From the IMG/VR virus record IMGVR_UViG_3300032050_000028, positions 58,304 through 122,303 of that record: DNA of 64,000 nucleotides. One strand, given 5' to 3'. This document shows, in pieces, positions 8,098 through 57,507 of the stretch. Each line of letters opens with the position of its first letter. Within the stretch, counting starts at the first letter, position 1. A program made the position numbers and the translations under genes. Under the pieces are notes generated by a model. That model did no database searches. It saw nothing but the letters and a program-made list of their open reading frames with translations, and was not told where the DNA came from. The DNA comes from a virus. Its lineage: Duplodnaviria; Caudoviricetes.

Positions 8098-8285
8098 TGA
8101 AGGAAATTAATCTTAATATGACTTCTGTTGAGGTTAGATCTGAAACAAGATCTCTAAGAGCTACTTGGTCACATGAAATGGTGCAGGATTTAAACTCATA
8201 TCATGGTGTTTCCTTAGAGAAAGAAATAGAAAGAATTTTTAGAATTGAAAAACGAAAAAATTCAATCAAAAATATATTTCCTTAA
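8094..8285 (+). CDS. mini-protein resembling a gp23-type major capsid protein segment plus basic tag
   Basis: TRSLRATWSHEMVQDLNSYHG vs recalled T4 gp23 SRQLKAAYSIELAQDLRAVHG; C-terminal KRKNSIKNIF. Confidence 0.7.
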   Translation: MMKEINLNMTSVEVRSETRSLRATWSHEMVQDLNSYHGVSLEKEIERIFRIEKRKNSIKNIFP

Positions 8286-8320: not shown

Positions 8321-9550
8321 ATGAAAATATCCAATAATTTACCTTCTCTTTATAAATCAAATATTACTAAAAAACTTAATAAAAAAAATCAATCTTTACA
8401 ATTCTTACCTAAATGTCTTGAATTAGTTTCCAAGACAAGTCATATCTTTTACAAAGATGAAAAAATTAAGACTTCTTACTTAATTGATATCGTTCATAAC
8501 CTTCTTCTTAAATATTATTTTAAGAAAGAAAATAAATTTACGATAAATGCTCAAGTTTTAAAAGATAAATATGGATACTTATACAAACATTATATTGATT
8601 ATCTTGTTGATAAAAGTATAATAAAGATGATTTGTAATTATAAAAAAGGTGTTACGTCTAGAATCTATTCTTTAAATCCTACAATATTTAAAGAACAGAT
8701 TAAAAGAACAAATAATCAAGATAAAGTTTTGGTAAAAAAATATAAAAAGAAAATATTTGACACTATTGAATTTGTAGATATTGATAAGTCTTCTATTAAT
8801 ATAGATATACGAGAAAAATTAATATCAGACCTTTTTTCAGTTGATATTGATTTTGAAAGAAGTCTATTTTATTTGAACTGTCTTAAAAAAGAAGACATTG
8901 ACATTTATAATAGAAATATTTATTCAGTTGAATCAATAAATGATAAACATATATTTTACCATTTTGATGATTATGGAAGACTTCATACAAATTTTACAAT
9001 ACTAAAATCATTTATACGTAAAAATTGTTTATTAATAGACGGACTAGAGACTTTTGAATTAGATATTAAAAATAGTCAGCCTCTTTTCTTATGTAAATTG
9101 ATTTCTGACTCACAAACCGCATGGGTCAATCGAGATGAATTTGAATTTTTTAAGCAACTAACAATGACTGGGAAATTTTATCAATTTTTAATGCAATCAA
9201 CTGGTGAAAAAGATAGAAATTTAGTAAAGGAAATGACATATAAGGTTCTTTTTGGAAGAAACAGAAGCAACTCAAAAGCGGACATTGAATTTAATAAATT
9301 ATTTCCTACAATTTATAATTTCATAAAGTTATATAAAAAAGAATGGGGTAATCATAAAGTATTGGCTCATGATTTACAAAGAGCTGAATCAAAATTAATC
9401 TACAATAAAATCATAAAAAAAATTATGATTTTATATCCTGATATAAAATTAATAACGGTTCATGATAGTATAGTTTTTCCTAAAATATATAAAGAAGAAA
9501 TCAAAAATATTTTTGATTATGAGTTATCAAAAGAATTTGATTTAAAGTGA
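8321..9550 (+). CDS. small family-A polymerase palm-domain protein (no exonuclease domain)
   Basis: GRLHT, motif A ELDIKNSQP, motif B R...K...VLFG, LQRAES, motif C TVHDSI. Confidence 0.6.
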   Translation: MKISNNLPSLYKSNITKKLNKKNQSLQFLPKCLELVSKTSHIFYKDEKIKTSYLIDIVHNLLLKYYFKKENKFTINAQVLKDKYGYLYKHYIDYLVDKSIIKMICNYKKGVTSRIYSLNPTIFKEQIKRTNNQDKVLVKKYKKKIFDTIEFVDIDKSSINIDIREKLISDLFSVDIDFERSLFYLNCLKKEDIDIYNRNIYSVESINDKHIFYHFDDYGRLHTNFTILKSFIRKNCLLIDGLETFELDIKNSQPLFLCKLISDSQTAWVNRDEFEFFKQLTMTGKFYQFLMQSTGEKDRNLVKEMTYKVLFGRNRSNSKADIEFNKLFPTIYNFIKLYKKEWGNHKVLAHDLQRAESKLIYNKIIKKIMILYPDIKLITVHDSIVFPKIYKEEIKNIFDYELSKEFDLK

Positions 9551-24305: not shown

Positions 24306-26216
24306 TTAGTGTGCATGTATAAAATTAAATAACAACTTTGAAACTGATGTGATAACTGGATTTTTTTTGGTGAAGTTTTTACCCCATTCTGTTTCCGTAA
24401 AACACCAACCTAATGTTGCTATGACTAAAACAACTAATGATATCACTTCAAATGCCATATGTAAACCAGGTATTGCATGTGTAAAAACTGATACTAAGAA
24501 AGCTAATAGAGCGCTTCCTGCGCCAATTGCTAGTCCTTTCCAATTTATTCCTTTTTTTGGAGCCTCTGATTCATTTACTTTGTTAAAATCATTAAATTTA
24601 ATTAGTCTTGATTCTTTATGTGGTTTCATGTCTTTTAGATTGACTCCAGTTGCTCTTTCAATGCCTCTGCCTGTTTCTGCATAAAACTCCTCTGCCTTTT
24701 GCACAGCACCTCCTAGTCCTATTTTTTCTCCAGCCATTTTTATCCAGTCTCCCGGTATGTGTGTTGTTAGTGCAAAAGCTTCTGCTGATGCTCCAACAAC
24801 CAGAGCTGTTATTGTTCCAATTGCGACAAATTTACCAGCATATTTTATTAAGTTTTTTACACCATCGAACATAGTTCCGAGTTTTCCACTCAACCAAGCA
24901 GGTACCGCTGATAATCCTTTAGCTACAACATCACTTAGTACTTCCATAAGTTTTCCAAAAGGTGATAAAATCCAAGATACAATTCCTATAAGCCACTTTT
25001 TAATTCCCCTTGATTCTGCTTTATGGATTTCTTTTTCTACATTTTCCTCATCTTCAGATTCTGAATTTTCAGCTTCATAAATTTTTTCAAACTTAGTTTC
25101 ATGTAATTTAACTAATTCATCAGTGTTGAAATTAGAATTTTTTGACATAAACCCTTTTAAAGAGTCCCAAATAAAACTATCATTTACTATCTCTTGTTCT
25201 TTTGTTTTTTCCTCTGTCGATTCAACTGAACCTAATATTTTATTTCCTGAAGATGTAGCTATATCCTCTACTGAATTACCGGTCAATTTTTTTAATTTGG
25301 CGCCAAAATACATTTTCATGTCTTTTATATCCTCACTGAGGATCTTCATTTCATTACCTAAATGTTCAGAATTTATTTTATCACCAAAATCTTTCACTAT
25401 AGATAACTTTGATTTCAATCCTGGTATAATTTTTAAGGCATGTGTCTTAATGAATTCCCAAACTTTACCTAAAATCTCTTTAATTTTAGTCCAAATATCC
25501 TTTACTATATTGGCTAAATTTTTGGCTAAATCTTTAAGCGTTGCATAGACCTTATCAAATACAGATTTAGATGTCTTCACAAAATCATCGATTGAATTCA
25601 TTACTTTTTTTGCTGTTGCTTCAATTTGAGCAACAATGTCTGCCCCAAATAGCTTTGTTGCTACATTTTTCAGAGCTTCTAAACCCGGTTTAAATATATC
25701 TTCTACAATTGAGTCCCAGGTTGATTGAGCAGAGTCTGACAACCAACCTAATGTATCACTTATTACACTACCAACATAATTTGCTCCTTTTTTGATACCC
25801 TTAACCACTTTTGTGTTTGAAGCCCAGTTTTTGAATTTATCCCACCTTTCACCTTCAAATATTAAAATATATTCCAAATTCTCCTCAATCAGTTTAATAT
25901 CAGACTCTGGAATATTTTTAGCTTCTAAATACTTTCTAGTTTGAATTCCTATTTCTTTTATTCTATCCTGATAAAATTTAACACAAACAATTTTCTTAGT
26001 TTCATCTAACATCTCCTTGTCTTCTAATATTAGTGAATAGTTCTCATTAACTTTATTGTTTTTCAAATAAAGACTAACAATGTCATTTTTTTTACCTTCA
26101 GTCATTATATTTTGAAATTCAGTAATTTGAAATTCTGAAATTTGTCTTCTTCTATTTGATTCTTTTATCGACATTTGTCGTCTGTAAAAGTCGTTATACC
26201 TGTTTAATCTAGACAT
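24306..26216 (-). CDS. large helical protein with TM segments, putative virion internal protein
   Basis: start 26216 MSRLNRYNDF; internal LIKFNDFNKVNE; amphipathic repeats; hydrophobic C-terminus. Confidence 0.6.
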   Translation of the reverse strand: MSRLNRYNDFYRRQMSIKESNRRRQISEFQITEFQNIMTEGKKNDIVSLYLKNNKVNENYSLILEDKEMLDETKKIVCVKFYQDRIKEIGIQTRKYLEAKNIPESDIKLIEENLEYILIFEGERWDKFKNWASNTKVVKGIKKGANYVGSVISDTLGWLSDSAQSTWDSIVEDIFKPGLEALKNVATKLFGADIVAQIEATAKKVMNSIDDFVKTSKSVFDKVYATLKDLAKNLANIVKDIWTKIKEILGKVWEFIKTHALKIIPGLKSKLSIVKDFGDKINSEHLGNEMKILSEDIKDMKMYFGAKLKKLTGNSVEDIATSSGNKILGSVESTEEKTKEQEIVNDSFIWDSLKGFMSKNSNFNTDELVKLHETKFEKIYEAENSESEDEENVEKEIHKAESRGIKKWLIGIVSWILSPFGKLMEVLSDVVAKGLSAVPAWLSGKLGTMFDGVKNLIKYAGKFVAIGTITALVVGASAEAFALTTHIPGDWIKMAGEKIGLGGAVQKAEEFYAETGRGIERATGVNLKDMKPHKESRLIKFNDFNKVNESEAPKKGINWKGLAIGAGSALLAFLVSVFTHAIPGLHMAFEVISLVVLVIATLGWCFTETEWGKNFTKKNPVITSVSKLLFNFIHAH

Positions 26217-26300
26217 ATATTGAATTTTTTTTATCTTCTTATATATTAAAAACAAAACCTTTTTTTTATTATCAATATAATTTTAGTAAAAGTATATTCA

Positions 26301-31254: not shown

Positions 31255-32781
31255 ATGCTTGTAGAAACCCAATATTTAACTAATACTAAACGATTGGTTG
31301 TAAGTTATGTAGATAAAACTGGTTATATAAAACTTAAATATTTTAATTGGGATAATCCTATGAAGTATGTATCTTGTGAAGACACAGATATTCAACGACA
31401 TCCTACTTTTAGGTCTTGGGATGGTAAATCAGTTAAACAGATTGAAGTAAATCATCCAGATAGATATGCTATTTATGAGTTTTTAGATTCTTTGCCTGAT
31501 AAAGAAAAAGAGGAAATATTTGAATTTAATTTACCAAAAATATTTTTCATAGATATTGAAACTGAAATTGTAGACGGTTTCCCTGAAGCCGCGGATGTTT
31601 ATGATCAAGAAGGTAATTTAGTAAAAGAGGGGGCTTCTACACAAGTTCTTTCTATATCTATAGTTTATGATGATAAAATTATACTATTGGGTTTAAAAGA
31701 TATGCCTAATGATATGCAGGATAGAATTCTAAATAATACAAATAAATATTTTGAGAAGTTTGGAACAGAATATAAATTTAAATATATCAAATATGATGAT
31801 GAATTTGATATGTTGTTTTCATTTTTTGACAAAATGATTCCTAAAATGCCATTACTTACTGGTTGGAATTTCCTTAATTATGACTGGTTATATTTGGTAA
31901 ATCGTTCTAGAAAATTAAAAAAATTTGTTAATGGTAAAGAATATAAAATTGATCCCAATACTTCATCTGTTACAAAAAGAATGAATAAGATTTGGTCTAC
32001 AAATTTTGAAGTTCCTGCTCATAGAATGATTTTTGACTACATGCAACTTTATGAGATATGTGATACATCTATCAAAGTAAAAGAATCCTCATCACTTGAT
32101 TTTGTATCACAAAAATTAGTTGGTGTTGATAAAATTAAATATACTGGTTCACTTCAAAAACTATATGAAGATGATTTTGAAACTTTTATGTATTATAACG
32201 CAGTCGATAGTGTTCTTGTTCAAAAAATTCACGAAGCAAGAAATTATATATCAATTATATTTGCGATATCTTCACTCGCTCAAATCAGAATAGTTGATGT
32301 TGTTTCTCAAATGAATAATGCACTTGGTTCACTTGCTATTACTGAAGGTGTGTTGAGAAATCGTTTTAGAAAGCAAGATAATATTGTTTTGTTTAAAGAT
32401 GATAGAGGTGATGCTGAATCTACAATTGCTGGTGGTTGGGTAAAGGATCCGGTAGTCGGATTAAATCAGTGGGTTGTTTGTTATGACTTTGCGTCACTCT
32501 ATCCCACTACACAAAGACAATTTTATATAGCCCCTGAAACTTTTGTTGGAATTCAAGATGATAAAGATAAATCTAAATGCTCAAACGGAAGAATAATAGA
32601 TTTAGAAAAACATGTAGTTTGTGTAAATGGCGTTGTTTTTGAAAAAAGACCTTCACCTACTCTTAGGATGCTTGAGGATGTTTACGCCGATCGTAAGAAA
32701 AATAAAAAGATTATGATGCAGAAAAAAGAAGAACTTAAAGAGGTTATGGATGAAATAAAAAAATTAGAAGCTGAGATTTAA
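31255..32781 (+). CDS. family B DNA polymerase, N-terminal part (3'-5' exonuclease + motif A)
   Basis: DIET (ExoI), GWNFLNYD (ExoII), YNAVD (ExoIII), GGWV, YDFASLYP (motif A); ends before KxxxNSxYG and YGDTDS. Confidence 0.85.
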   Translation: MLVETQYLTNTKRLVVSYVDKTGYIKLKYFNWDNPMKYVSCEDTDIQRHPTFRSWDGKSVKQIEVNHPDRYAIYEFLDSLPDKEKEEIFEFNLPKIFFIDIETEIVDGFPEAADVYDQEGNLVKEGASTQVLSISIVYDDKIILLGLKDMPNDMQDRILNNTNKYFEKFGTEYKFKYIKYDDEFDMLFSFFDKMIPKMPLLTGWNFLNYDWLYLVNRSRKLKKFVNGKEYKIDPNTSSVTKRMNKIWSTNFEVPAHRMIFDYMQLYEICDTSIKVKESSSLDFVSQKLVGVDKIKYTGSLQKLYEDDFETFMYYNAVDSVLVQKIHEARNYISIIFAISSLAQIRIVDVVSQMNNALGSLAITEGVLRNRFRKQDNIVLFKDDRGDAESTIAGGWVKDPVVGLNQWVVCYDFASLYPTTQRQFYIAPETFVGIQDDKDKSKCSNGRIIDLEKHVVCVNGVVFEKRPSPTLRMLEDVYADRKKNKKIMMQKKEELKEVMDEIKKLEAEI

Positions 32782-38269: not shown

Positions 38270-39601
38270 ATGACTCCTCAGTTAGAGAAAGTTTTCTTTA
38301 ATTACATTTTGGCTTATAAAAAATACTTTGAGATTGTAAAACCATTCTTTTTTAGAAATTCGGAAATACAATTTGTTTATGGTGTTATAAGAAATTACAT
38401 GTTGGTATCAACTGATAGTAAAATTCCTTCTAATAGACAAATTCTTGATATGGTTAATATTGAAGATAAAGAGGGTGTAATAACTAAGGAAATTCTAAAA
38501 TCTATACTACAAGTAGACTTAAAAGAATACGATGAAAAGAACTTTATCGAACCTAAATTTAATGCTTGGGTTTTGGCTAATCGACTTAAAACTGGTACTG
38601 TAGATATTATTGATGAGACAAGAAACTTAGATTCTATATCTGAGTTTGAAAAGGCAATTGAGGCGGCTGATAGAATTAAAGCGATAGTTGATGAGATGTC
38701 ATCTACTAACTTTGTCCAAGATGATGATTTAGGTTCAGATTTTGATGATCCGGAAAATCATGTCCAAGACTCATCTAAGTTTAAAATTAAATCAGGTTTT
38801 GAAACATTGGATCATATGTTAGGTGGTGGTTGGGATATACAAACACTTAATTGTATTATGGCTGAAACAAATAATGGTAAATCTCTTTGGATGCAAAACT
38901 TCGCAGTCAAATCAGCTGATGCTGGATATAATGTGCTTTATATAACACTTGAAATGTCGGAAAGAAAAGTTATGAAGAGATTGGGTGCCATGAGACTAAA
39001 GATTCCGATAAACGATTATGATACAATTTCCAAAGATACTGAAATGATAAAGAAAAGAATTAAGGCTTTGGGAACCTTAAAAGAAGGTGGTGATATATTT
39101 GACAAAAAAGTCGGAAAAATTTATAGTAAATTTTGGGCGGCTGGTACTGCAACAATCTCAGACTTTGATTACTACTTGCAAAAACTAAAAGATAAGAGAG
39201 ATATAAAGGTAGATTTAATAATTGTTGATTATATTACACTAGTCGCTGCTCCGAAAGGAGTAGGTGCTGATAATCTTTATACAAAAGGTAAAAGTTTAGC
39301 AGAGGGTCTAAGGGCATTAGGCGCAAAATATAAATGTCCAGTGATTACTGGTGTTCAGGTAGCAAAAGATGCTTGGAATTCATCTGATATAACACTTGAA
39401 AGTGTACCAGAGAGCAAAGCCATTGCTGAAACTGCTGACACATTTTTTGCTATAATTAGAACAGAAGAAATGAAAAGACAAAATCTTTACAGATTTAAAT
39501 TACTTAAACAAAGAGATGGTGATTTTTTAAAATCACAGATAAGATTGAACTTAAATCCAACTTATTTAACACTGGAAAATGACCAGTTTTTAGACCAATA
39601 A
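38270..39601 (+). CDS. replicative DnaB-family helicase (T4 gp41-like)
   Basis: AETNNGKS Walker A, YITLEM, IIVDY, GVQ, ESKAIAETAD, KQRDG. Confidence 0.9.
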   Translation: MTPQLEKVFFNYILAYKKYFEIVKPFFFRNSEIQFVYGVIRNYMLVSTDSKIPSNRQILDMVNIEDKEGVITKEILKSILQVDLKEYDEKNFIEPKFNAWVLANRLKTGTVDIIDETRNLDSISEFEKAIEAADRIKAIVDEMSSTNFVQDDDLGSDFDDPENHVQDSSKFKIKSGFETLDHMLGGGWDIQTLNCIMAETNNGKSLWMQNFAVKSADAGYNVLYITLEMSERKVMKRLGAMRLKIPINDYDTISKDTEMIKKRIKALGTLKEGGDIFDKKVGKIYSKFWAAGTATISDFDYYLQKLKDKRDIKVDLIIVDYITLVAAPKGVGADNLYTKGKSLAEGLRALGAKYKCPVITGVQVAKDAWNSSDITLESVPESKAIAETADTFFAIIRTEEMKRQNLYRFKLLKQRDGDFLKSQIRLNLNPTYLTLENDQFLDQ

Positions 39602-40673: not shown

Positions 40674-43226
40674 ATGAATATAAAAGTAACTAAAAGAAAT
40701 GGGAAAAAAGAACCGGTAATGTTAGATAAAATTCTAGATAGAATTAATCAACAAACATATGGATTAGATTCAAAATGGATATCACCTTTTGATGTTGCTC
40801 AGAAAGTAATTGCTGGTGTGACTCCTGATATAAAAACATCAACGCTAGACCAATTAGCTATGGAAACAGCAGCTTCTCTTACAACAAAACATCCGGATTA
40901 TTCTGTTTTGGCTGCAAGATTAGCAATAACAGCTCTTCACAAAGAAACAAAGAAATCATTTTCTGAGACTGTTAATGATTTATATGAATATGTTAATCCT
41001 AAAACAGGAAAACACTCTCCAATAGTATCAAAGGATTTTAATGATATAGTAAAAAAATATGCTGATGAATTAGATTCAGCTATTGTTCACTCAAGAGATC
41101 ATAACTTTGATTATTTTGGTTTTAAAACTTTAGAAAAGTCATATTTGCTAAAAATTAATGGTGAAGTAGCAGAAAGACCTCAATATATGTATATGAGAAC
41201 TGCTATACAAGTATGGGGTGAGAATTTGGAAAAAGTTATTGAAACATATAATACACTCTCTGAAGGATACTACACTCATGCAACACCAACACTTTTTAAT
41301 TCAGGTACAACAAGACCTCAGTTATCTTCTTGTTTTCTTTTAGATACTGAAACAGATTCTATAGAGGGTATATTCAATACTCTTAAAGAATCAGCTCAGA
41401 TTTCAAAAAATGCAGGTGGAATTGGAATTTCTTTTAATAAAGTAAGAGCAAAAGGAACATATATCGCTGGTACTAACGGTACATCAAATGGTATTATTCC
41501 TTTCTTGAAAATCTTTAATGAGACGGCAAGAGCGGTCGATCAAGGTGGTGGTAAACGTAAAGGTTCAATTGCAATTTATATGGAGCCTTGGCACGCTGAT
41601 ATTATGGAATTCCTAGACTTAAGAAAAAATCAAGGTAAAGATGAGATTAGAGCAAGAGACCTTTTCTTAGCTATTTGGAACAATGATTTATTTATGGAGA
41701 GAGTTGACTTAGATGAGGATTGGTCACTTATGTGTCCACATGAGTGTGAGGGTCTTAATGAGACTTATGGAGAAGAATTCAGAAAACTTTATTTAAATTA
41801 TGAAAGTAAAGGTAAAGTTAAAAGAACTGTAAAAGCAAGAGAAGTTTGGAATAAAATTTTAGAGTCTCAAATTGAAACAGGAACACCTTATATTCTTTAT
41901 AAAGATTCTATCAATGAGAAATCTAATCAATCAAATATTGGAATTGTAAGAAGTTCAAATCTTTGTGCTGAGATAGTCGAGGCGACTGGGGTTACTAAAG
42001 TTCAAAAAGAAATTTTACAAAATAAAGAACTACTAGAGTCTTTAGGTTTAGGTGAATTTTATGGCGAAGAGTCTGTTAATGAAACTGCAGTTTGTAACTT
42101 AGCTTCAATAGCACTGCCTAAATTCATTAACAAAAATAAAACTTACAATTTCAATAAGTTGTATGAAGTTGCATACAGTGCGATTGTTAATTTAAATAAT
42201 GTTATTGATGTTAATTACTATCCTTCAAAAGCGGCTAAATTTTCTAACCTATTGCATAGACCTGTTGGTTTGGGAGTGCAGGGACTTGCTGATGTCTTCT
42301 TTACACTTAATCTACCTTATGATTCTGATGACGCTAAACAATTGAATAAAGAAATTTTTGAAACTATTTATTACGCTTCGATTAAAGCATCTTGTGATTT
42401 GGCTAAGGAACAAGGAACTTATGCAACTTATAAAGGTTCTCCTATTTCAGAAGGTAAATTTCAATTCGATCTTTGGGGAGCTAAACCTACAAAAAGATGG
42501 GATTGGGAAAAATTAAGAGAAGAAGTTAAAAAACATGGTGTTAGAAATTCTTTAACAACTTGTATTATGCCAACTGCTTCTACTGCTTCTATTTTAGGAA
42601 ATGAAGCATCTTGTGAGGCTCAAACCTCAAATATGTATACTAGAGGAGTTCTTTCAGGGACATTTATCTTAGTAAATAAGTATTTAGTCAAAGAATTGGT
42701 TAAATTAGGTATTTGGGATGATAATTTAAGAAAAAGAATTATTGCTGAGAATGGCTCTGTTCAAAATATTCCACAGATTCCAACTGGTGTTAAGGAAATA
42801 TTTAAAACAGTTTATGAAATTAAACAAAGAGATGTTATTGATATGGCTGCTGATAGAGGAGCATTTATCGACCAAACTCAATCAATGAATATTTTTATGG
42901 ACTCTCCGAACTTTGCTAAATTGACTTCAATGCATTTTTATGGTTGGGGTAGAAGAAGCCTTATGAAGGATACCAATGGTCAAGTTATTTTACCACAAGG
43001 TGAAAACATTGAAATCATTTATGATAAAGATGGTAGTCCAAGATTCTATAGAGAGAAAAAGAATAATCTTAAAACTGGAATCTATTATTTGAGAAATAAA
43101 TCAGCAACAGATGCGGTTAAATTTACTATTCAAGAAGAAAAAGAAGTTAAGACAGTTGAAGAACAAATGGCTGAAATCAGCTGTTCATTGGATGATCCAG
43201 ATTCATGTTTAGCTTGTGGAGCCTAA
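40674..43226 (+). CDS. nrdA: ribonucleotide reductase class Ia large subunit with ATP cone
   Basis: VTKRNG cone, ATPTLFN, SSCF, GGGKRKG, SNLCAEI, VCNLAS, PTAST, KTGIYYLR, C-terminal CxxC. Confidence 0.97.
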   Translation: MNIKVTKRNGKKEPVMLDKILDRINQQTYGLDSKWISPFDVAQKVIAGVTPDIKTSTLDQLAMETAASLTTKHPDYSVLAARLAITALHKETKKSFSETVNDLYEYVNPKTGKHSPIVSKDFNDIVKKYADELDSAIVHSRDHNFDYFGFKTLEKSYLLKINGEVAERPQYMYMRTAIQVWGENLEKVIETYNTLSEGYYTHATPTLFNSGTTRPQLSSCFLLDTETDSIEGIFNTLKESAQISKNAGGIGISFNKVRAKGTYIAGTNGTSNGIIPFLKIFNETARAVDQGGGKRKGSIAIYMEPWHADIMEFLDLRKNQGKDEIRARDLFLAIWNNDLFMERVDLDEDWSLMCPHECEGLNETYGEEFRKLYLNYESKGKVKRTVKAREVWNKILESQIETGTPYILYKDSINEKSNQSNIGIVRSSNLCAEIVEATGVTKVQKEILQNKELLESLGLGEFYGEESVNETAVCNLASIALPKFINKNKTYNFNKLYEVAYSAIVNLNNVIDVNYYPSKAAKFSNLLHRPVGLGVQGLADVFFTLNLPYDSDDAKQLNKEIFETIYYASIKASCDLAKEQGTYATYKGSPISEGKFQFDLWGAKPTKRWDWEKLREEVKKHGVRNSLTTCIMPTASTASILGNEASCEAQTSNMYTRGVLSGTFILVNKYLVKELVKLGIWDDNLRKRIIAENGSVQNIPQIPTGVKEIFKTVYEIKQRDVIDMAADRGAFIDQTQSMNIFMDSPNFAKLTSMHFYGWGRRSLMKDTNGQVILPQGENIEIIYDKDGSPRFYREKKNNLKTGIYYLRNKSATDAVKFTIQEEKEVKTVEEQMAEISCSLDDPDSCLACGA

Positions 43227-43798: not shown

Positions 43799-45253
43799 AT
43801 GTCAAAATTTAACGCAACATTACCAAAACAAAAAACACTAACTGAAAACTTAGCTGGTGGACAAGCTTATTCTCAATCTACTGAGATGGCACTAGTATCT
43901 CTTTTATTAACATCATTTGTTAATGACCAGTTTTATAGAGGTGCTCAAACCACGCTACAGGAATTGAAGAAGTTATCCGAGAAAGTTAAAGACAAAGAAT
44001 TTGTCGCTAAATCTGCTATTTATGCTCGTGATAAGTTTGGAATGCGTAGTGTTACTCATGCACTTGCTGCTGAATTAACCTCTCAGTTGAATGGTGCTGA
44101 GTGGGGTAAAGACTTTTATAATAAAGTTATTGTTCGTGTTGATGACATGACTGAAATTCTTTCTTATTACTTAGCCTACAAAACCGAAAAAGACAATCCT
44201 AAGTTTCCTAATTCTTTGAAAAAGGGATTTGCTAAGGCTTTTGATAAATTTGATGGTTATCAGTTGGCTAAGTATAAAGGAGAAAACAAAGATGTTAAAC
44301 TAGTTGATATAGTAAACTTGGTCCATCCAGTTCCAACTCAAAGAAACAAAGAAGCTTTAGAACTTCTTGTAAAAGGTGAGTTAAAGAATACTGAGACTTG
44401 GGAAGCTAAGTTATCTGCAGTTGGACAACAAGCGGATTCGGAAGAAGAGTTGGCTAATTTGAAGTCAAATGCTTGGTCTGAACTTATTGAAACGAGAAAA
44501 ATTGGATATTTTGCGCTTCTTAGAAATTTAAGGAACATTATTACACAATCTCCAGGTTCTGTAAAATCGGCTTGTGAAATGTTAGTTGATGAAAAGTTGA
44601 TAAAAAACTCAAGAGTTCTTCCTTTCCGTTTTGCTACTGCTTACGATGAAATTAATAAAGTTGGATCATCTAAGGAGGTTAGAGACGTTCTTGTTGCTAT
44701 CAATCAGGCTCTTGAAGTTTCTATTCATAACGTTCCTAAATTTGAAGGTGAGACGCTTGTAGTAATGGATGTATCTGGTTCCATGATGGGTAGAGCATCT
44801 GAAATTGCTTCTCTTTTCGGAGCAGTTTTGGCAAAAGCAAACAACTGTGATGTTATGAAATTTGCCACTAATGCTGATTATAAATCATACAATCCATTGG
44901 ATTCTGTTATGTCTATAAGAAATAGTTTTAAGTATTCTGGTGGTGGAACTAACTTCAAAGCTATTTTTCAAAAGGCTAATAAAAAATATGACCGTGTTAT
45001 TATCTTAAGTGATATGCAAGGCTGGGTAGGTTATACAAGTCCATCTTCAGAGTTCAAGTCTTACAAAAAGAAATTTGATGCGAATCCTTTTGTTTATTCT
45101 TGGGATTTAGCTGGTTACGGAACTTTACAGTTTCCTGAAAATAATGTGTTTTGTTTGGCAGGATTCTCTGATAAAGTTTTTGATATTATGGGTCTTATGG
45201 AGACTGATAAGAAGGCACTTTATAATGAGATTAACTCTATCAAAATAGTTTAA
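43799..45253 (+). CDS. rsr: Ro60/TROVE-domain RNA-binding protein with vWA domain
   Basis: NLAGGQAY, YQLAKYK, HP, TWE, ALLRNLRNI, LPFRF, MIDAS DVSGSM, GGT, SDMQ. Confidence 0.92.
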   Translation: MSKFNATLPKQKTLTENLAGGQAYSQSTEMALVSLLLTSFVNDQFYRGAQTTLQELKKLSEKVKDKEFVAKSAIYARDKFGMRSVTHALAAELTSQLNGAEWGKDFYNKVIVRVDDMTEILSYYLAYKTEKDNPKFPNSLKKGFAKAFDKFDGYQLAKYKGENKDVKLVDIVNLVHPVPTQRNKEALELLVKGELKNTETWEAKLSAVGQQADSEEELANLKSNAWSELIETRKIGYFALLRNLRNIITQSPGSVKSACEMLVDEKLIKNSRVLPFRFATAYDEINKVGSSKEVRDVLVAINQALEVSIHNVPKFEGETLVVMDVSGSMMGRASEIASLFGAVLAKANNCDVMKFATNADYKSYNPLDSVMSIRNSFKYSGGGTNFKAIFQKANKKYDRVIILSDMQGWVGYTSPSSEFKSYKKKFDANPFVYSWDLAGYGTLQFPENNVFCLAGFSDKVFDIMGLMETDKKALYNEINSIKIV

Positions 45254-51863: not shown

Positions 51864-52540
51864 TCAAGCTTCACAAACCAATAATTAAAGAAGATGTAAT
51901 TATCACCTATTAGATTGTAATAATCATTTTCGTGTTTTATGATAATCTTACCTTCATGGCTTCTAACCAACTCAATTTCAATTCCTTTTTCCATTCTTAA
52001 TTGTTTTCCAGTGTCAACTGAGTAACAAATAATTTCATCGTTTATGAGTTTATAATTACCAGGTTCTGGTTTTAACCATTGTTTTATTGTTTTTATAATT
52101 AGTCCTGTTGTTTTTATAACCCACTCTTTAGGTTGTAATAAGTCAAAGTCTTTGAAAACTTCAGATTTTAACTTTGGTTCTGTTGTATTTATATTTGATA
52201 TTTTACCCCAATATTCTTCATTATCTATAATAAATGTTATATAAACATCATAATTTATATTATTTACTTTTACAATCCTAAGTATTTTCATACTTTGTAT
52301 ATCTTGGTCTTCTAAAGCTAATTTACTTCTTAAATTTGAATAGGCTGATGTTCCTTTAAGATTATATAGAATATCATCAATTCTAGACATTGCTTGTCTG
52401 ATTTTATCTTGATGTTTATCAAAGGCGTTTATAGATAGTTGTGGATCATCAACTTGTGTTGCTGGTCTGGCTGAATCTGAATTTAATCTTTGAACATTAA
52501 ATTCAGTAAACTCTAGAATTAATCTATTTCTATTTTTCAT
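51860..52540 (-). CDS. hypothetical protein with capsid-targeting-like N-terminus
   Basis: RLILEFTEFN near the start. Confidence 0.7.
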   Translation of the reverse strand: MKNRNRLILEFTEFNVQRLNSDSARPATQVDDPQLSINAFDKHQDKIRQAMSRIDDILYNLKGTSAYSNLRSKLALEDQDIQSMKILRIVKVNNINYDVYITFIIDNEEYWGKISNINTTEPKLKSEVFKDFDLLQPKEWVIKTTGLIIKTIKQWLKPEPGNYKLINDEIICYSVDTGKQLRMEKGIEIELVRSHEGKIIIKHENDYYNLIGDNYIFFNYWFVKLD

Positions 52541-52541
52541 A

Positions 52542-52557
52542 TTAATATATATATTAA
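52542..52557. promoter_or_regulatory. palindromic back-to-back late-type promoter
   Basis: TTAATATATATATTAA between divergent genes 52540(-) and 52580(+). Confidence 0.6.
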
Positions 52558-52579
52558 ATAATTAAAATTACATATTGAT

Positions 52580-52900
52580 ATGAAAATTAGAAGATTTAAT
52601 GAATCAACAGAAGAACTAGACATTACACCTGAAAGAGTCGGTGAATTAATAGAAGAACTTAAAGACAGTCTTTCTTTAATAGAGGATAAGAGTGAAAGTG
52701 TTGATAAATTATTAAGTGAATTAGAAAAATATAAAAATAACTCTAAAAAGGGAAATGACCAAATAGATGATTCATTGGCTGCTCTGCAAATTATTAAAAA
52801 AAATTTAGATGAATCAACTGATAAACTTGATACGGTAATTGGTAATTTAATGGATTACAATGATGAAGGTCGAAAGTATCTTTATACAGAAAACAAATAA
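52580..52900 (+). CDS. coiled-coil protein with capsid-targeting-like N-terminus
   Basis: MKIRRFNE. Confidence 0.7.
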   Translation: MKIRRFNESTEELDITPERVGELIEELKDSLSLIEDKSESVDKLLSELEKYKNNSKKGNDQIDDSLAALQIIKKNLDESTDKLDTVIGNLMDYNDEGRKYLYTENK

Positions 52901-52937
52901 GATTAATTAGATATAATTTCTAAAATTATATTTATTT

Positions 52938-53156
52938 ATGAATGATGTCAACTTGCGTTCATCTGTTGAATTAGTTGGTGAATATACAACACAGATTATT
53001 CACTTTGTAGGTGGTGAAAAAAGAACATTTTCTGATATTGAGTCTTCTTCGATAAAACAAGGTCAATTTACAAAACTAAATATTAAAGATGGTAGAGTTA
53101 TTATGGTAAACGATAAAAATGTTCTTTGTATAGAGGTTTTTCCTCAAAAAAACTAA
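52938..53156 (+). CDS. small hypothetical protein
   Basis: 72 aa; AAAC-N16-ATATAA upstream. Confidence 0.7.
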   Translation: MNDVNLRSSVELVGEYTTQIIHFVGGEKRTFSDIESSSIKQGQFTKLNIKDGRVIMVNDKNVLCIEVFPQKN

Positions 53157-53165
53157 ATTATAAAA

Positions 53166-53981
53166 ATGATTTATGAATCTTTAAAAGACCGATTAGTTAA
53201 TACAATATTGCAATTTAAATCTTGGATTAGGTATACAAAAAAATCATATCACTTCGGAAATGATGAACCCAATACAAAATTGATGAATTGTAGATTTTCT
53301 GATAATTTCAAATTTTTTGATAAAAATAAATGGAGAATTTCACAACCATGGGGTAGATTTCATACTGGAAATCCTACTCAATATTATGGTGATGAGTCGG
53401 TTTATTTAGAGGATGGTAGTTTAACTTTAGACACAAAATATTTACCAAAAAAAGGTTTAACAACTTGGGAAAATGATATTAAGTATGATATAGATTATTC
53501 TGTTGGTTTAATTACAAGTTTAGAATCATTTGGTTATGGATTTTATGAATTCGAAATTACATTACCTAAAGGTGTTGGTCTTTGGCCTGCTGTCTGGTTG
53601 ACTGCTGTTGATACTTGGCCACCTGAAATTGATATTTTAGAGGCATATTCTGACCAATATTCTAATTATGGAAGAAAATTTCAAACTAATTTACACTTTA
53701 ATTTTAATCCTAATAAAAAAAATTCTGGTGCGAGAAATCATAGATTATTAGAACCATATCAAGTATTAAAAGTATCCTGTCATTGGAATGAAAACTTTAT
53801 AAAGATTTTCTATAATGGATATTTAGTTAGACAAGTAACATCTAAAAAAGTATTAAAGTGGTTCAAAAATAAAAAAATGACAATTGTAATTAATAATGCA
53901 CTTAGAAGTGAGTATATAAAGTATATTGATAGAAAAGAAATCACAAAGTTTAAAATATTCAGCGTAAAATATTCGAATTAA
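53166..53981 (+). CDS. glycoside hydrolase family 16
   Basis: FGYGFYE, GLWPAVW, catalytic EIDILE. Confidence 0.88.
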   Translation: MIYESLKDRLVNTILQFKSWIRYTKKSYHFGNDEPNTKLMNCRFSDNFKFFDKNKWRISQPWGRFHTGNPTQYYGDESVYLEDGSLTLDTKYLPKKGLTTWENDIKYDIDYSVGLITSLESFGYGFYEFEITLPKGVGLWPAVWLTAVDTWPPEIDILEAYSDQYSNYGRKFQTNLHFNFNPNKKNSGARNHRLLEPYQVLKVSCHWNENFIKIFYNGYLVRQVTSKKVLKWFKNKKMTIVINNALRSEYIKYIDRKEITKFKIFSVKYSN

Positions 53982-54185
53982 ATGAATTATAAAGTCAAAG
54001 GTATTGTAGTTGATGATAATAATATAAGTTCATATGGAATTGATATAGAATCTGAACTTACTAAAGTTTTATCTGAAGAATTAGCTAAAGGAATTGATAG
54101 AGAAATACTTAAGAGCTTAGGTATTCTTGAAAGACCTATAAGAAGAAAAAATTCTATAAATAGAATATACAAAAATGTTTGTTGA
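53982..54185 (+). CDS. capsid (gp23)-fragment mini-protein A with basic tag
   Basis: YGIDIESELTKVLSEELAKGIDREIL vs recalled gp23 HGMDADAELSGILATEIMLEINREVV; RRKNSINRIY. Confidence 0.7.
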   Translation: MNYKVKGIVVDDNNISSYGIDIESELTKVLSEELAKGIDREILKSLGILERPIRRKNSINRIYKNVC

Positions 54186-54354
54186 TCCAAATCAAATAAA
54201 TCCATATGATAAAATTTTAGGTGGGCCTAAAATGAATGATGATGATTTTAATGGAATAAAATCTACTTGGATTTTACTTCGTTCTGTAATACGTAAACAA
54301 AAAATTGAAAAAATATATGGAACAAAAAGTGAAGATAGGAAAGAAAAGTTCTGA
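54175..54354 (+). CDS. capsid (gp23)-fragment mini-protein B with basic tag (59 aa, not in the ORF track)
   Basis: read by hand: MFVDPNQINPYDKILGGPKMNDDDFNGIKSTWILLRSVIRKQKIEKIYGTKSEDRKEKF; overlaps both neighbours. Confidence 0.55.
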   Translation: MFVDPNQINPYDKILGGPKMNDDDFNGIKSTWILLRSVIRKQKIEKIYGTKSEDRKEKF

Positions 54355-54586
54355 TTTGGAACCTGGTTATGTTTGGGCTCCTTATATTCCAATGACAACA
54401 TCGGCGACTATAGTTGAATACGGTTCTAAGAACATAAGTAGGAAAAGAAAGATTAATAAGATATTTAATTTAGGTTTGAATATTAAAGATAATTGGTTTC
54501 CAAAAAAGTCAATTACTTCAAGATACTCTGCTGTTCAGATAAGCAATCCTTATCAGACTATATTTATAGAAGGTAATATGATATAA
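54317..54586 (+). CDS. capsid (gp23)-fragment mini-protein C with internal basic tag
   Basis: IGKKSSDLEPGYVWAPYIPM...FPKKSITSRY vs recalled gp23 VGYKGPNEMDAGIYYAPYVAL...FQPVMGFKTRY; RKRKINKIF inserted. Confidence 0.7.
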   Translation: MEQKVKIGKKSSDLEPGYVWAPYIPMTTSATIVEYGSKNISRKRKINKIFNLGLNIKDNWFPKKSITSRYSAVQISNPYQTIFIEGNMI

Positions 54587-54615
54587 TAAAACCCAACTTT
54601 TCAGTTGGGTTTTAT
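54586..54615. terminator. bidirectional intrinsic terminator
   Basis: ataaaacccaact-tttc-agttgggttttat. Confidence 0.85.
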
Positions 54616-54617
54616 TT

Positions 54618-55184
54618 TTATTTGTTATATTTTAACTTATAAAGTGTTTTGTAAATTAAAGCGACTGCTTCATCCACGATATTTAATAGATGTGAATCTT
54701 CTGGTTTAATACACTTCTTTTCTGTTTTAACAAAATTAGCTAATTCCTCAAAGTATTCAATTTTATCTTTTGATTGTGTAGATGAAGTATCAATTGTTTC
54801 ATAACCTTCAACAATTCCGTATTGACCCTGGTAAACTTCAATCATTTCATCAATAAATCCTAAAATACCTTCATAGTAATCACCAAGTGCTGTGTGTGCT
54901 GCGTGAGAACCCATTTCACCTTTTACCGTTAAATGATAAATGTGAGCCATTTCTCTACTTTCAAAAAGCTTAGAGAAGAATTTTACAACATCTCCACCTT
55001 CTGAAACCTCAACTTCACCTTCTTTTTGTTCTTCTTGTTTAGGTTCTGGTTGTAATTCTTTTTTACCAGACATAAGAGCTAAAAGTTCTTCTTTAGACAT
55101 ATCTTGATAGTTTTGTGGAAGATTAGCTTCTTCGGCTTCATTAACTCTTTTTACTTTTTTCTGAATTTCTGAAAATCTTTTCAT
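54618..55184 (-). CDS. ferritin-like (DUF5856-type) four-helix protein
   Basis: AHIYHL...HTALGDYYE...DEMIEVYQGQYG...LYKL. Confidence 0.65.
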   Translation of the reverse strand: MKRFSEIQKKVKRVNEAEEANLPQNYQDMSKEELLALMSGKKELQPEPKQEEQKEGEVEVSEGGDVVKFFSKLFESREMAHIYHLTVKGEMGSHAAHTALGDYYEGILGFIDEMIEVYQGQYGIVEGYETIDTSSTQSKDKIEYFEELANFVKTEKKCIKPEDSHLLNIVDEAVALIYKTLYKLKYNK

Positions 55185-55291
55185 ATTTAGTTTTAGTTTT
55201 TTCTGATTTATATATTAAACTTTTAATTCCATTTTTAAGAAAAGTAAATTTTAATTTTAATATATATTCTTATAAAAATAAAACTATAATT

Positions 55292-55678
55292 ATGAGTCAT
55301 ATCAAAAAATACTCAAGATTTGTTGAAGAGTTTGTAATGACAGGAACTGAAACAAAACCGGCTCCTACTACAACTCCGGCGCCAACTACGGTTCCAAGGC
55401 CTCGTCCGAGACCCGGAATAGCCCCTACTGAAACACCTTCTGAAGAAGATGCTCCTTTAGCAACTGGAACTGAAACAAAGCCGGCTCCTACTACAACTCC
55501 GGCTCCTACTACGGTTCCAAGACCTCGTACAAGACCTGGTATTGCACCAACAGAGGTTCCTTCTGAAGAAGATGCTCCTTTAGCACTCGCTAAAAAAGTT
55601 ATGGATAGATTAGAGAATGTTTATACAAAGTCATCTAAAACCGAAAGAGATGAGATTGATTCTCATTTTGAAAAATAA
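55292..55678 (+). CDS. Pro/Thr-rich protein with capsid-targeting-like N-terminus
   Basis: MSHIKKYSRFVEE followed by a 41-aa duplication. Confidence 0.75.
   Translation: MSHIKKYSRFVEEFVMTGTETKPAPTTTPAPTTVPRPRPRPGIAPTETPSEEDAPLATGTETKPAPTTTPAPTTVPRPRTRPGIAPTEVPSEEDAPLALAKKVMDRLENVYTKSSKTERDEIDSHFEK
55340..55585 (+). repeat. 123-bp in-frame direct duplication
   Basis: ggaactgaaacaaa at 55343 and 55466; TGTETKPAPTTTPAPTTVPRPR... twice. Confidence 0.9.
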
Positions 55679-55686
55679 AATATTTT

Positions 55687-57507
55687 ATGAAATCATTTGA
55701 ACAATTTATAAAAGAAGAAGTTGATTTAAGCGGAAGTAAAGGTGTTCCTTCGGATTTTATGTCAAAGTCTGAAGAACAAGCTAGACGATCTTTAGGTATT
55801 AGAGTAGATGATGAAAGAGGTGAGATGCCTAGAATTTATCCAGACTTTCAGAGAAATCAAATGGAGTCTGAAAGATTACTAAGAAATGGCCAAGATGGAA
55901 GACCTTTAAGTCGTGAAGATTTTGAAAAAAGAGTTGAGAAATTAGAAAAACTTGCAGAAAAAGTAGTAAGAGAAGAGTTTGATGATGTATTAAAATCTGG
56001 TGTTAAACCAGTTGAATTACAAATTAAATTGGTTCCAATTGGTGGTGTTACTGGAGAAATCCCAGATATTAGAGATGTCCCTCAACAAGCCGAACAGCCT
56101 GAAGAAGAACAGCCTGAAGAACAACAGGATGAAGAACAGCCTGAAGAACAACAGGATGAAGAACAGGATCAAGAAGGACAACAAGACGAACAAGACCAGC
56201 AAGAACAACAAGAACCTGGAGAAGAAGTAAAAACTAGTTTATCATCTTCAATTGATAAGAAAAAGTTATTGAATATGATAACTCAAGCCGCTGGTAAATC
56301 AACTAAAGATATTATTAGAGTTTCTGAAACTGTTGAAGAAGAATTAAGTGAGATTTTTGGTGAAAGACAAGGAAAACAAATACTTGATTGTTGGGTCAGA
56401 ATGTCCGATTTAGCTGATAAAATGGATTGGGTTATTCCGATTTCAAAAAAATCACAAATGATGAAAGGAATGCCACAAGGTATGGCCGGTGCTTGTCAAG
56501 TAAAATGGGAAAGTTTTTCTGGTAATTATTATAATTTAGATATTCTTTTAGAAAAAGAAGCAACTAAAATTGTTATTAAAGCAACTGGTGTTGATTTTCC
56601 AATGTTGATACATGAAGCAATTAAAGGTGTATATCTTTTCCTTCAGTCAAGTGCTATTAAAAAGGATAAAGAAACAGCTAAGATTATAAAAAAAGCTACT
56701 TCCTCTTTTGCTGATGAGGCACAGGATTTTAGATATGGACCACCTGCACTTGAAATGTTAATTAAATTTGTTAATAAGTTTCCAGAATCAACTGAGTATA
56801 AGCGTTTAGATACAAAAGTATATGCTATGTTAGCTAAAGATAAAGAAGGTGCTAAACAAGAATTAGAAAAAGCAAAACTTACTGCTAAAGAAGCTAAAGA
56901 AAAATCGACTAAAACAGGAGACATCAATGATGAATATGCAGCTGAAGATGCTGAATTCATAGTTGAATATTTAGAAAAAAGATTTAAGTTTGTTAAAACT
57001 GACGATCAGTTTTTAGAGATTATGAATAGTTTGTTTTCTACTTTTGATTTGGTCGGATTAAATTTTGAGTTAAATGAAGAAAAGTTTAATAATTCAAAAG
57101 CAAAAAATGAGATTTCAAAAATAATAAAATATATTGTTGATGATATTGAAGAAGCTAAAAGAGAAGCTGAGGAGTATAATAAAGCAATGGAGGATTGGAA
57201 AAGAGAACAAAAAGAACGTGAAGAAGAAGAAAAGTGGAGTTCGAAAGAAAAAGAAACTGAAGAAGAGTCTGACATAGATAAATTAGTAAGACAATCCCTC
57301 TATGGACAAAAAGAAGAACCTAAAGAAAAGAAACCATATGATCAAATGACTATGGCTGAGATTCAAATGGAAATAGATGATGCGGTGGCTGATGAAAATT
57401 ATGAATTAGCCAGTGAGTTAACTAAAAAATATCTCAAAGGAGAGGCTAAAAAAGTTTGGGAAACTGAACTTGCTAGAATTAATGAAAGAAACCACACAAG
57501 AAGATAA
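55687..57507 (+). CDS. large acidic putative internal head protein with C-terminal UVR-like helix pair
   Basis: MKSFEQFIKE; EQPEEQQDE repeats; FPMLIHEAIKG; EIDDAVADENYELASEL. Confidence 0.65.
   Translation: MKSFEQFIKEEVDLSGSKGVPSDFMSKSEEQARRSLGIRVDDERGEMPRIYPDFQRNQMESERLLRNGQDGRPLSREDFEKRVEKLEKLAEKVVREEFDDVLKSGVKPVELQIKLVPIGGVTGEIPDIRDVPQQAEQPEEEQPEEQQDEEQPEEQQDEEQDQEGQQDEQDQQEQQEPGEEVKTSLSSSIDKKKLLNMITQAAGKSTKDIIRVSETVEEELSEIFGERQGKQILDCWVRMSDLADKMDWVIPISKKSQMMKGMPQGMAGACQVKWESFSGNYYNLDILLEKEATKIVIKATGVDFPMLIHEAIKGVYLFLQSSAIKKDKETAKIIKKATSSFADEAQDFRYGPPALEMLIKFVNKFPESTEYKRLDTKVYAMLAKDKEGAKQELEKAKLTAKEAKEKSTKTGDINDEYAAEDAEFIVEYLEKRFKFVKTDDQFLEIMNSLFSTFDLVGLNFELNEEKFNNSKAKNEISKIIKYIVDDIEEAKREAEEYNKAMEDWKREQKEREEEEKWSSKEKETEEESDIDKLVRQSLYGQKEEPKEKKPYDQMTMAEIQMEIDDAVADENYELASELTKKYLKGEAKKVWETELARINERNHTRR

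Follow-up and report, generated by a model that had tools for sequence, protein, structure and literature searches.

Sequence evidence for a conserved set of tagged mini-genes related to fragments of gp23-type capsid proteins in freshwater megaphages

The stretch of DNA analysed here, referred to as the window, comprises 64,000 nt (bases 58304–122303) of the 122,303 bp IMG/VR record IMGVR_UViG_3300032050_000028, a Caudoviricetes record whose completeness is estimated at 54 %; the G+C content of the window is ~28 %. On its plus strand, positions 53982 to 54586 hold three overlapping small open reading frames (ORFs) in three frames, here called mini-genes A (53982–54185; 67 aa, frame 0), B (54175–54354; 59 aa, frame +1) and C (ATG at 54317, end at 54586; 89 aa, frame +2, or 93 aa if translation begins at a TTG at 54305). 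Each combines a segment resembling part of a gp23-type major capsid protein with a copy of a short basic helix, termed the tag, whose consensus is R-K-x-(S/K)-I-N-K-I-F/Y. The ATG of A comes straight after the stop codon of a GH16-family gene (TAA then ATG), the ATG of B lies 11 nt upstream of the A stop and that of C 35 nt upstream of the B stop, and the residues of the B tail downstream of the tag are dictated by the coding frame of C. One terminator-like hairpin with a T-run (54585–54616, plus strand; 0.4 expected in shuffled sequences) closes the group. A preliminary description of this DNA had proposed three overlapping small ORFs and a single terminator, and an ORF scan and a hairpin scan bear this out; that B was missing from the ORF track fits its length of 59 aa, one residue below the 60 aa default limit of the ORF tool.

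The capsid likeness is clearest for A and C. Mini-gene A consists of a homologue of the gp23 spine helix (residues 18–46), a linker and the basic helix. It matches the Pfam Gp23 profile with an E value of 7e-5 (22.8 bits; residues 17–46 on profile positions 165–194), matches the PHROG major head protein family, and in BLASTP aligns at 55 % identity over 29 aa (E 8e-8) with residues 282–310 of P0279, a 487 aa canonical full-length gp23-type capsid protein from a metagenome library that surfaced in our exhaustive C-family profile search. Mini-gene C is a homologue of the C-terminal ~60 residues of gp23-type capsid proteins: its residues 7–88 align with residues 421–481 of P0279 (E 2e-7) with a single 22-residue gap, which is exactly the tag-bearing stretch. 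C alone had no match in Pfam, and 15 of 33 members of its family match Gp23 at E≤0.1 (best 3e-5). The record also encodes a complete major capsid protein of its own (568 aa, Pfam Gp23 89.9 bits), whose gene is located outside the window. BLASTP of A against this resident protein gave an E value of 1.5, in the wrong place, and that of C gave 2e-4 at residues 497–553; profile–profile comparison placed the C family at residues 494–531 (P 9.5e-4) and the A family at 337–369 (P 5e-3). B showed a weak but collinear similarity to residues 487–524 of the resident protein (E 0.078) and no match to P0279 in BLASTP, to Pfam or to PHROGs. The gp23 likeness stated in the preliminary description thus stands for A and C and is weak for B. 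Its claim that the mini-genes are consecutive pieces in capsid order survives in part: the order is kept, but ~110 residues, corresponding to the A-domain, are absent between A and B, and since B corresponds to the same capsid segment as the first half of C, it is better regarded as a partial duplicate of C than as the piece preceding it. Further matches of A, to ‘hypothetical proteins’ of the Ralstonia phage RsoM2USA and the Stenotrophomonas phage RAS14, lie in coding sequences of 412 and 463 aa, presumably unlabelled capsid genes, and were rejected as mini-genes.

Searching the whole record with the Pfam Gp23 profile revealed a fourth tagged capsid piece, here called U0 (8094–8285, plus strand; 63 aa), which matches profile positions 131–177 (42.4 bits, E 7.6e-11) and ends in EKRKNSIKNIFP. 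U0 spans the strand on the E-loop side of gp23 and the start of the spine helix; it aligns with residues 247–290 of P0279 (BLASTP, E 4e-11), whereas BLASTP against the resident capsid protein found nothing (E 16). Its ATG overlaps the stop codon of an upstream 446 aa ORF (ATGA), and this position is syntenic at at least five other loci, four of which place U0 between homologues of both the 446 aa ORF and a downstream 409 aa ORF. All four pieces, A, B, C and U0, begin directly at or within the end of the preceding gene, an arrangement suggestive of translational coupling. The 446 aa ORF (6757–8097, plus strand) has no Pfam or PHROG match and is kept upstream of U0 in the genome LR745206 and in several IMG/VR contigs. 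The 409 aa ORF (8321–9550, plus strand), directly 3′ of U0 and syntenic in loci L014, L016, L017/L018 and in genome G003, likewise lacks a Pfam or PHROG match; by eye, it contains polymerase-like motifs (YGRLHT, DIKNSQP and VHDS) and a tag-like KEEIKNIF 11 residues before its stop.

Against the Gp23 gathering cut-off of 24.4 bits, U0 lies above, A lies below, and B and C have no match. Each piece covers only ~30–60 of the 376 profile positions (131–177 for U0, 165–194 for A and 300–376 for a C-type relative in G003). The whole HK97-type fold is not covered, and the pieces are fragment homologues rather than capsid proteins. Judged by the BLASTP comparisons above, U0 and A are clearly, and C is modestly, more similar to canonical gp23 than to the capsid protein of the phage itself.

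The tags lie at 54141–54170 in A (RRKNSINRIY), 54292–54318 in B (RKQKIEKIY), 54440–54466 in C (RKRKINKIF) and 8250–8279 in U0 (KRKNSIKNIF), all on the plus strand. The 22-residue insertion of C relative to canonical gp23 contains its tag, which confirms the earlier observation that this copy sits inside the capsid segment. A strict tag pattern occurs four times in the six frames of the 122,303 bp record against 0.17 expected under an order-2 Markov model; this pattern was derived from these very copies, and an independent test is provided by G003, where six were seen against 0.53 expected and one of the six lies in an ORF of at least 150 aa. A relaxed pattern occurs seven times in the six frames of the record, four of these being the capsid pieces. 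Among 22 tag copies drawn from the window and from 17 loci in relatives, the Arg is written with four codons and the two Ile with three each while the residues stay unchanged; the regular expression that selected the copies required R/K, I/V, I/L and F/Y at fixed positions, and R, I and I are present in every one of the 22. The variation of codons under constant residues therefore argues for selection on the peptide.

AlphaFold2 predicts two helices in A, one at residues 22–45 corresponding to the spine helix (block predicted local distance difference test, pLDDT, 80–92) and one at 50–66 containing the tag (77–87). In C, modelled with the family alignment, the sole confident element is a helix at residues 37–50, which is again the tag (block pLDDT ~83, as against a mean of 59 for the whole). 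In both A and C, the helical hydrophobic moment peaks at the tag, their most amphipathic 11-residue stretch, whose net charge is +2 to +3. The position of the tag is movable, internal in C but C-terminal in the C-type form of LR745206 and in permuted forms of relatives. By composition, a membrane, an acidic scaffold or nucleic acid are candidates for its partner. A clamp-binding role was considered and dropped, as the relaxed pattern occurs in no long ORF of the record except the 409 aa ORF; the B-family polymerase part and the other replisome ORFs of the record lack it. The T4 late-promoter word TATAAATA occurs within the tag of A and is not kept there in orthologues; with 19 occurrences in the window where 16.9 would be expected, this word shows no enrichment, and none precedes the capsid gene.

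Homologues of the mini-genes are numerous and of constant size. In cluster searches, 45 of 45 candidates belonged to the A family at E≤0.01 (all 62–77 aa), 12 of 12 to the B family (51–59 aa and one of 82 aa) and 222 of 223 to the C family (73–132 aa among the 120 listed). When 1.84 billion representatives were searched exhaustively with the C-family profile, 183 proteins passed E≤1e-3, of which 44 also passed E≤1e-10; among the 150 listed, 142 have at most 157 aa. The 26 aligned relatives of A share 58–85 % identity with it, with the tag among the best-conserved columns, and the alignment of 33 C-family members contains 13 invariant columns, which include PY, the R/I/I/F of the tag and RY. 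All three families lack functional annotation, their members being named ‘hypothetical protein’ or not at all, apart from one cluster with a mismatched label.

Gene arrangements are also retained. A locus search with C confirmed at least three related loci. At L008, a locus of the diverged genome G002, the overlap of B and C and their frames are kept, and the same terminator and convergent DUF5856 gene follow; a 189 aa gene is inserted there between A and B. A occurs alone, with its tag, in LR745206 and LR756502, and A-, U0- and C-type genes co-occur in four of the five related genomes searched (G001, G002, G003 and LR745206). Ratios of non-synonymous to synonymous substitution (dN/dS; Nei–Gojobori) were 0.31–0.51 for A, 0.49 for B and 0.26–0.76 for C, compared with 0.25–0.28 for the essential capsid gene and 0.02–0.30 for three neighbouring genes in the same script. 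This indicates purifying selection on A, B and C that is weaker than that on the capsid gene. Taken together, A, B, C and U0 are genuine conserved small genes of a freshwater megaphage clade.

Other architectures were found among 14 fetched members of the 150 listed C-profile representatives and through further searches. B and C are joined in one frame in P0077 (132 aa), at the tag and not at the B stop; P0190 (125 aa) joins a B-like piece and C in a single frame, and P0206 (143 aa) joins a tagged A-domain-like piece to C. Four proteins (P0232, P0239, P0249 and P0250) are circularly permuted, with a C-terminal strand segment followed by a GY(V/I)xAPY segment and then the basic helix, and in P0247 an untagged C-type module ends a 271 aa protein; P0208 and P0319 were set aside, by eye, as spurious repeat proteins. 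Locus L006 has no separate B, and one ORF opens with the first residues of B and continues into C, by eye without gaps relative to the capsid protein. The same small unit thus appears to occur split, fused and permuted, with a movable helix. The preliminary description had argued that a decayed pseudogene would not gain the same tag three times. Such repeated gain is not needed, because the single-frame fused forms P0077, P0190 and P0206 suggest one multi-tag precursor that was later split into pieces.

Tagged ORFs in relatives extend beyond the capsid protein. The five related genomes each carry one full capsid gene and two to six Gp23-like fragments (E≤10). Genome G003 (385,333 bp, 95 % complete) contains U0, A and C and, in addition, three overlapping tagged ORFs in tandem at 342,285–342,811, with respective matches to Gp23 profile positions 222–259 (E 0.013), to the head maturation protease (phrog_207, E 4.4e-4) and to the C-terminal end of the T4 portal (Pfam E 0.0039; phrog_213 E 0.0045). 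Tagged small ORFs of the same kind are present in G001 (436 kb), which has three further tagged families besides U0, A and C in common with G003. Tagged portal- and protease-like ORFs in a relative suggest that a wider set may be directed at head morphogenesis. Other tagged ORFs contain motifs resembling those of tail sheath, terminase and B-family polymerase; PHROG matches of the sheath-like and terminase-like families were non-significant (E 0.15 and 0.1), and the polymerase-like ORF had no Pfam or PHROG match.

Three observations on related ORFs may be added. A small ORF of this record outside the window (G000, C1:22159–22386) has a weaker tag-like end, KRENKLSKILKNV, and belongs to one of the three further families common to G001 and G003, being orthologous to tagged ORFs at 26,053–26,283 of G003 and 260,391–260,654 of G001. 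Untagged ORFs of 252–265 aa match Gp23 positions ~189–323 (the A-domain and part of the P-domain) in G003 (C1:85134–85403, L037) and LR756502 (241210–241530, L022); they are a second, larger kind of capsid-derived protein in relatives, and this type has no counterpart in the present record at E≤10. The B-family DNA polymerase looks split, in that the window ORF at 31255–32781 (plus strand) matches Pfam DNA_pol_B positions 18–151 only, and in G001 the N- and C-terminal parts (C1:203506–203952 and C1:317539–318897) lie more than 110 kb apart.

The resident capsid protein is 77 % and 75.7 % identical to its counterparts in LR745206 (635 kb) and LR756502 (642 kb), both ‘uncultured phage’ genomes, and ~30 % identical to those of Lak phages. 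The window therefore stems from a megaphage. Fourteen DNA runs with lake, freshwater or ‘fungus metagenome’ labels contain at least 88 % of the words sampled from 52500–55300. The distance from the capsid gene to A is ~96 kb in this record as against ~240 kb in LR745206 and LR756502, a discrepancy that suggests a large rearrangement, different genome sizes or a problem of assembly. A putative scaffold gene (L001:399–1163) upstream of the resident capsid gene (L001:1243–2946) encodes a very acidic product.

The neighbourhood of A, B and C is non-structural and variable, with ribonucleotide reductase (RNR), DnaB, Ro60 and GH16 genes nearby and insertions that differ between genomes. The GH16-family gene (53166–53981, plus strand; Pfam E 1.3e-12) abuts A, and together with a 72 aa ORF (the pair spanning 52938–53981, plus strand) it sits between a 106 aa coiled-coil ORF and A; as A directly follows the 106 aa ORF in L006 and L008, this pair is a local insertion of accessory genes. 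On the other side, convergent with C and sharing the terminator, lies the DUF5856 or ‘starvation-inducible regulator’ gene (54618–55184, minus strand; phrog_858 E 6.9e-17). Further upstream, a Ro60/TROVE and vWA protein (43799–45253, plus strand; Pfam TROVE E 2.4e-21; phrog_850 ‘RNA-binding protein’ E 6e-47) adjoins a class I RNR (40674–43226) and a DnaB-like helicase (38270–39601). Downstream, a 128 aa protein (55292–55678, plus strand), which is kept in L008, contains a direct duplication of a ~40-residue Pro/Thr-rich unit (GTETKPAPTTTPAPTTVPRP...SEEDAPLA, twice), and a 606 aa protein (55687–57507, plus strand) has a long, strongly acidic Q/E/D-rich stretch and no family match in Pfam or PHROGs.

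Contigs from RNA libraries of two studies align on C at 90–97 % identity, a weak hint of transcription given that DNA carry-over is possible; contigs from RNA libraries of three studies align on the DUF5856 gene. No contig from four RNA-library runs covered 52500–54322 (GH16, A and most of B), although contigs cannot show absence. Scans for sigma-70 promoters found no more than chance would give (17 where 19.0 were expected, and 3 where 4.5 were), Rfam 15 gave no match at gathering score in the 64 kb window (introns, riboswitches and recoding signals) and a tRNA scan gave none. Neither blastn of 53982–54586 nor tblastn of C (E≤1) found a match in 50,697 phage records, and Foldseek of the A model against the PDB returned nothing at E≤10. 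A search of the ESM Atlas for look-alikes of C reached a best score of 0.82, below the 0.9 level and a lead only, and a complex prediction for A and C, run without controls, scored 0.01 (mark 0.32) and counts neither way. Remnants of group I or group II introns, inteins or homing endonucleases were rejected as an origin, the resident capsid gene being intact and the tag, we believe, unlike intein or intron starts.

What might such genes do? Our preferred reading, to which we give a probability of roughly one in three, is that they encode microProtein-like, trans-acting modulators or poisons of gp23-type (T4-type) head assembly. A fragment of a self-assembling protein with a single contact element preserved is the classic design of a dominant-negative ‘microProtein’. 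The segments here are the strand before the spine helix together with the helix start (U0), the spine helix itself (A) and C-terminal strands (B and C). Each would dock on a gp23-type capsid protein or a prohead partner where its parent segment would sit, the shared helix would supply one common second contact for all fragments, and the outcome would be modulation or poisoning of head assembly. Given the greater likeness to canonical gp23 than to the resident protein, clear for U0 and A and modest for C, the likeliest target would be head assembly of co-infecting T4-type phages, with the phage’s own assembly less likely. This closeness fits the earlier proposal of assembly modulators or dominant-negative inhibitors of rival phages; it suggests that foreign T4-type heads are the target, unless it reflects an old origin.

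Several points weigh against this reading. C is not predicted to fold alone (mean pLDDT 59), the homology of B is not significant and purifying selection is only moderate. The wide conservation would also fit a housekeeping role in the phage’s own assembly, the canonical likeness could be ancestral if the resident capsid gene diverged fast, and the sharing of a host with T4-type phages is assumed. The portal and protease matches come from single sequences (E 4e-4 to 4e-3), and the non-significance of the sheath- and terminase-like matches counts on the same side. A broader proposal, which we consider rather doubtful, is that the mini-genes belong to a genome-wide library of tagged microProteins. 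Conserved short interaction segments of canonical T4-type capsid, portal and prohead protease, and perhaps of sheath and terminase, would have been copied and each fused to the one basic amphipathic helix, which would provide a common effector step; the products would act as trans-dominant weapons that disrupt the assembly of faster rivals sharing the cell, or alternatively blind host sensors of core phage proteins.

A serious, if unlikely, possibility is that the pieces form a split mini-capsid protein for the phage’s own use, reassembling via their strands and helices, as cis-linked parts in some lineages and as separate trans-acting ones here, into a small P-domain-like unit that would be a minor, cement or scaffold-like part of a giant capsid, with the basic helices facing DNA or acidic scaffold. 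The fused forms P0077 (B and C), P0190 (B-like and C) and P0206 (A-domain piece and C) are in keeping with this, as is the circular permutation of four of the 14 fetched proteins, which parts of a single compact fold typically show. Starts and stops that abut or overlap suggest translational coupling, a common trait of subunits of one complex; the co-occurrence of A-, U0- and C-type genes in four of five related genomes and the very acidic putative scaffold upstream of the capsid gene also agree with it. Yet the genes lie far from the head module in a variable accessory context, U0 and A do not follow the resident capsid protein in sequence, the model of C alone is poor, and the pieces are separable: L008 has a gene between A and B, and A is on its own in LR745206 and LR756502. 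The same separability speaks against a single A–B–C polypeptide made through two programmed +1 shifts or through transcriptional slippage on A-runs, which we regard as improbable. Genes of the prfB or antizyme type, which use a programmed +1 shift, have a conserved shift site at a slow or stop codon and an invariably adjacent downstream frame without a start of its own. Here both junctions are +1, both upstream stops are TGA followed by T such that +1 reading gives GAT, A-runs are present at both, and natural single-frame B–C forms exist (P0077 and P0190). Nevertheless, each ORF has its own ATG where capsid homology begins, the stop after A is TAA in L006 rather than the TGA of the window, no Rfam element was found in the window, and the frames of P0077 are joined at the tag and not at the B stop; P0077 also comes from a single cluster and could reflect a homopolymer sequencing error.

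Little credence is given to the idea that the fragments are immune decoys or blockers, which would imitate sensed parts of capsid, portal and protease and occupy the sensors without activation, or whose tag would hand the sensor, once bound, to some fate. That bacteria can sense capsid and other core phage proteins is established (PMC9712102 and PMC13581612), and the fragments derive from several core proteins and resemble canonical, widely conserved versions. The known sensors are activated by binding, however, and according to PMC13581612 Avs sensors recognize conserved core folds, so that short unfolded fragments would more likely be ignored or activating. A decoy for the phage’s own capsid should moreover resemble that capsid, which U0 and A do not, and no defence or anti-defence neighbour was seen, although no PADLOC search was made. 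Selection might instead act on the tag as DNA, either as an A-rich translation-initiation region for the next gene or as a recombination site for cassette shuffling, with the peptide as a by-product. We hold this to be highly improbable: the next ATG does lie at or just past the tag in A/B, B/C and the G003 tandem, and mini-gene combinations do differ between genomes, but codons vary while residues are kept, the C tag is internal and followed by in-frame capsid homology, a 35 nt spacer follows the U0 tag, and the TATAAATA word in the A tag is neither kept in orthologues nor enriched in the window. Finally, three frames within 605 bp, a missing A-domain and a barely recognizable B are what a decaying duplicate of the capsid gene would leave, and yet pseudogene debris is practically dismissed, having been refuted by conservation. 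Frames stay open at constant length in 45, 12 and 222 clusters at ~28 % G+C, identities of 58–85 % argue against near-clonal families, and residues are invariant (13 in C). The assertion of the preliminary description that this is not a decayed pseudogene is borne out by these clusters together with the identical frame arrangement in L008, the synonymous tag codons and dN/dS below 1.

If the reading proposed here is right, this would be the first virus with a conserved mini-gene set made from fragments of capsid, and probably other head, proteins plus a shared peptide module. Possible consequences are a new route for phage–phage conflict or immune evasion in which protein fragments interfere, a natural supply of peptides inhibiting T4-type head assembly, and an example of gene fragments that were exapted instead of decaying. 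Direct tests are within reach, as genes of ~200 bp lend themselves to expression in laboratory hosts and T4-type phages serve as standard models. Should the role prove to be an accessory one in building very large capsids, the architecture, a split, fused and permuted unit with a movable helix, would remain unusual.

In the main text of the full-text literature searched (PMC7824862, PMC13581612 and PMC12484599 included), we found no description of tagged capsid-fragment genes. New here are the fourth tagged piece, the likeness to canonical over own gp23, the fused and permuted forms and the tag ending portal- and protease-like ORFs in relatives; the nearest known concepts share single aspects only with the mini-genes. 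Full-length gp23 (PF07068, HK97 fold) is related through the collinear homology of U0, A and C (Pfam positions 131–177, 165–194 and ~300–376), but the pieces lack the N-arm, the E-loop tip and the A-domain, have a basic helix added and lie outside the head module of a phage with its own 568 aa capsid gene. Small satellite proteins that act on HK97-fold capsid assembly include CpmB of Staphylococcus aureus pathogenicity islands (SaPI), Sid of P4 and Ccm of phage-inducible chromosomal islands (PICI), of which Ccm is a capsid-protein homologue and CpmB has a C-terminal helix that copies the capsid-binding end of the scaffold. Compared by description only, these are satellite-encoded and act on a helper, whereas the genes here belong to the large phage itself and correspond to fragments rather than whole domains. 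Amphipathic C-terminal helices serve in membrane targeting (MinD and FtsA) or as capsid-binding ends of scaffolds (P22 gp8 and 80alpha); the tag, at ~10–15 residues, basic with a narrow hydrophobic face, usually C-terminal and modular, resembles them in composition only. In T4, Gol is a short gp23 stretch active on its own with Lit, although it is a region within the full protein and from another part of gp23. The mini-genes differ from this internal region in being separate genes, and no sensor is linked to them. Capsid sensing is further described for CapRel (PMC9712102) and for Avs7, 8 and 10, which bind capsid protein, while other Avs bind other core proteins (PMC13581612). MicroProteins, according to the abstract of PMC6003976, are small proteins, each homologous to a single segment of a larger multimeric protein, that regulate in a dominant-negative manner; plants and animals are the only groups named there. 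The pieces share with them small size and the possession of one interaction segment of a larger self-assembling protein with the rest absent, and differ in forming a fragment set with one extra shared helix.

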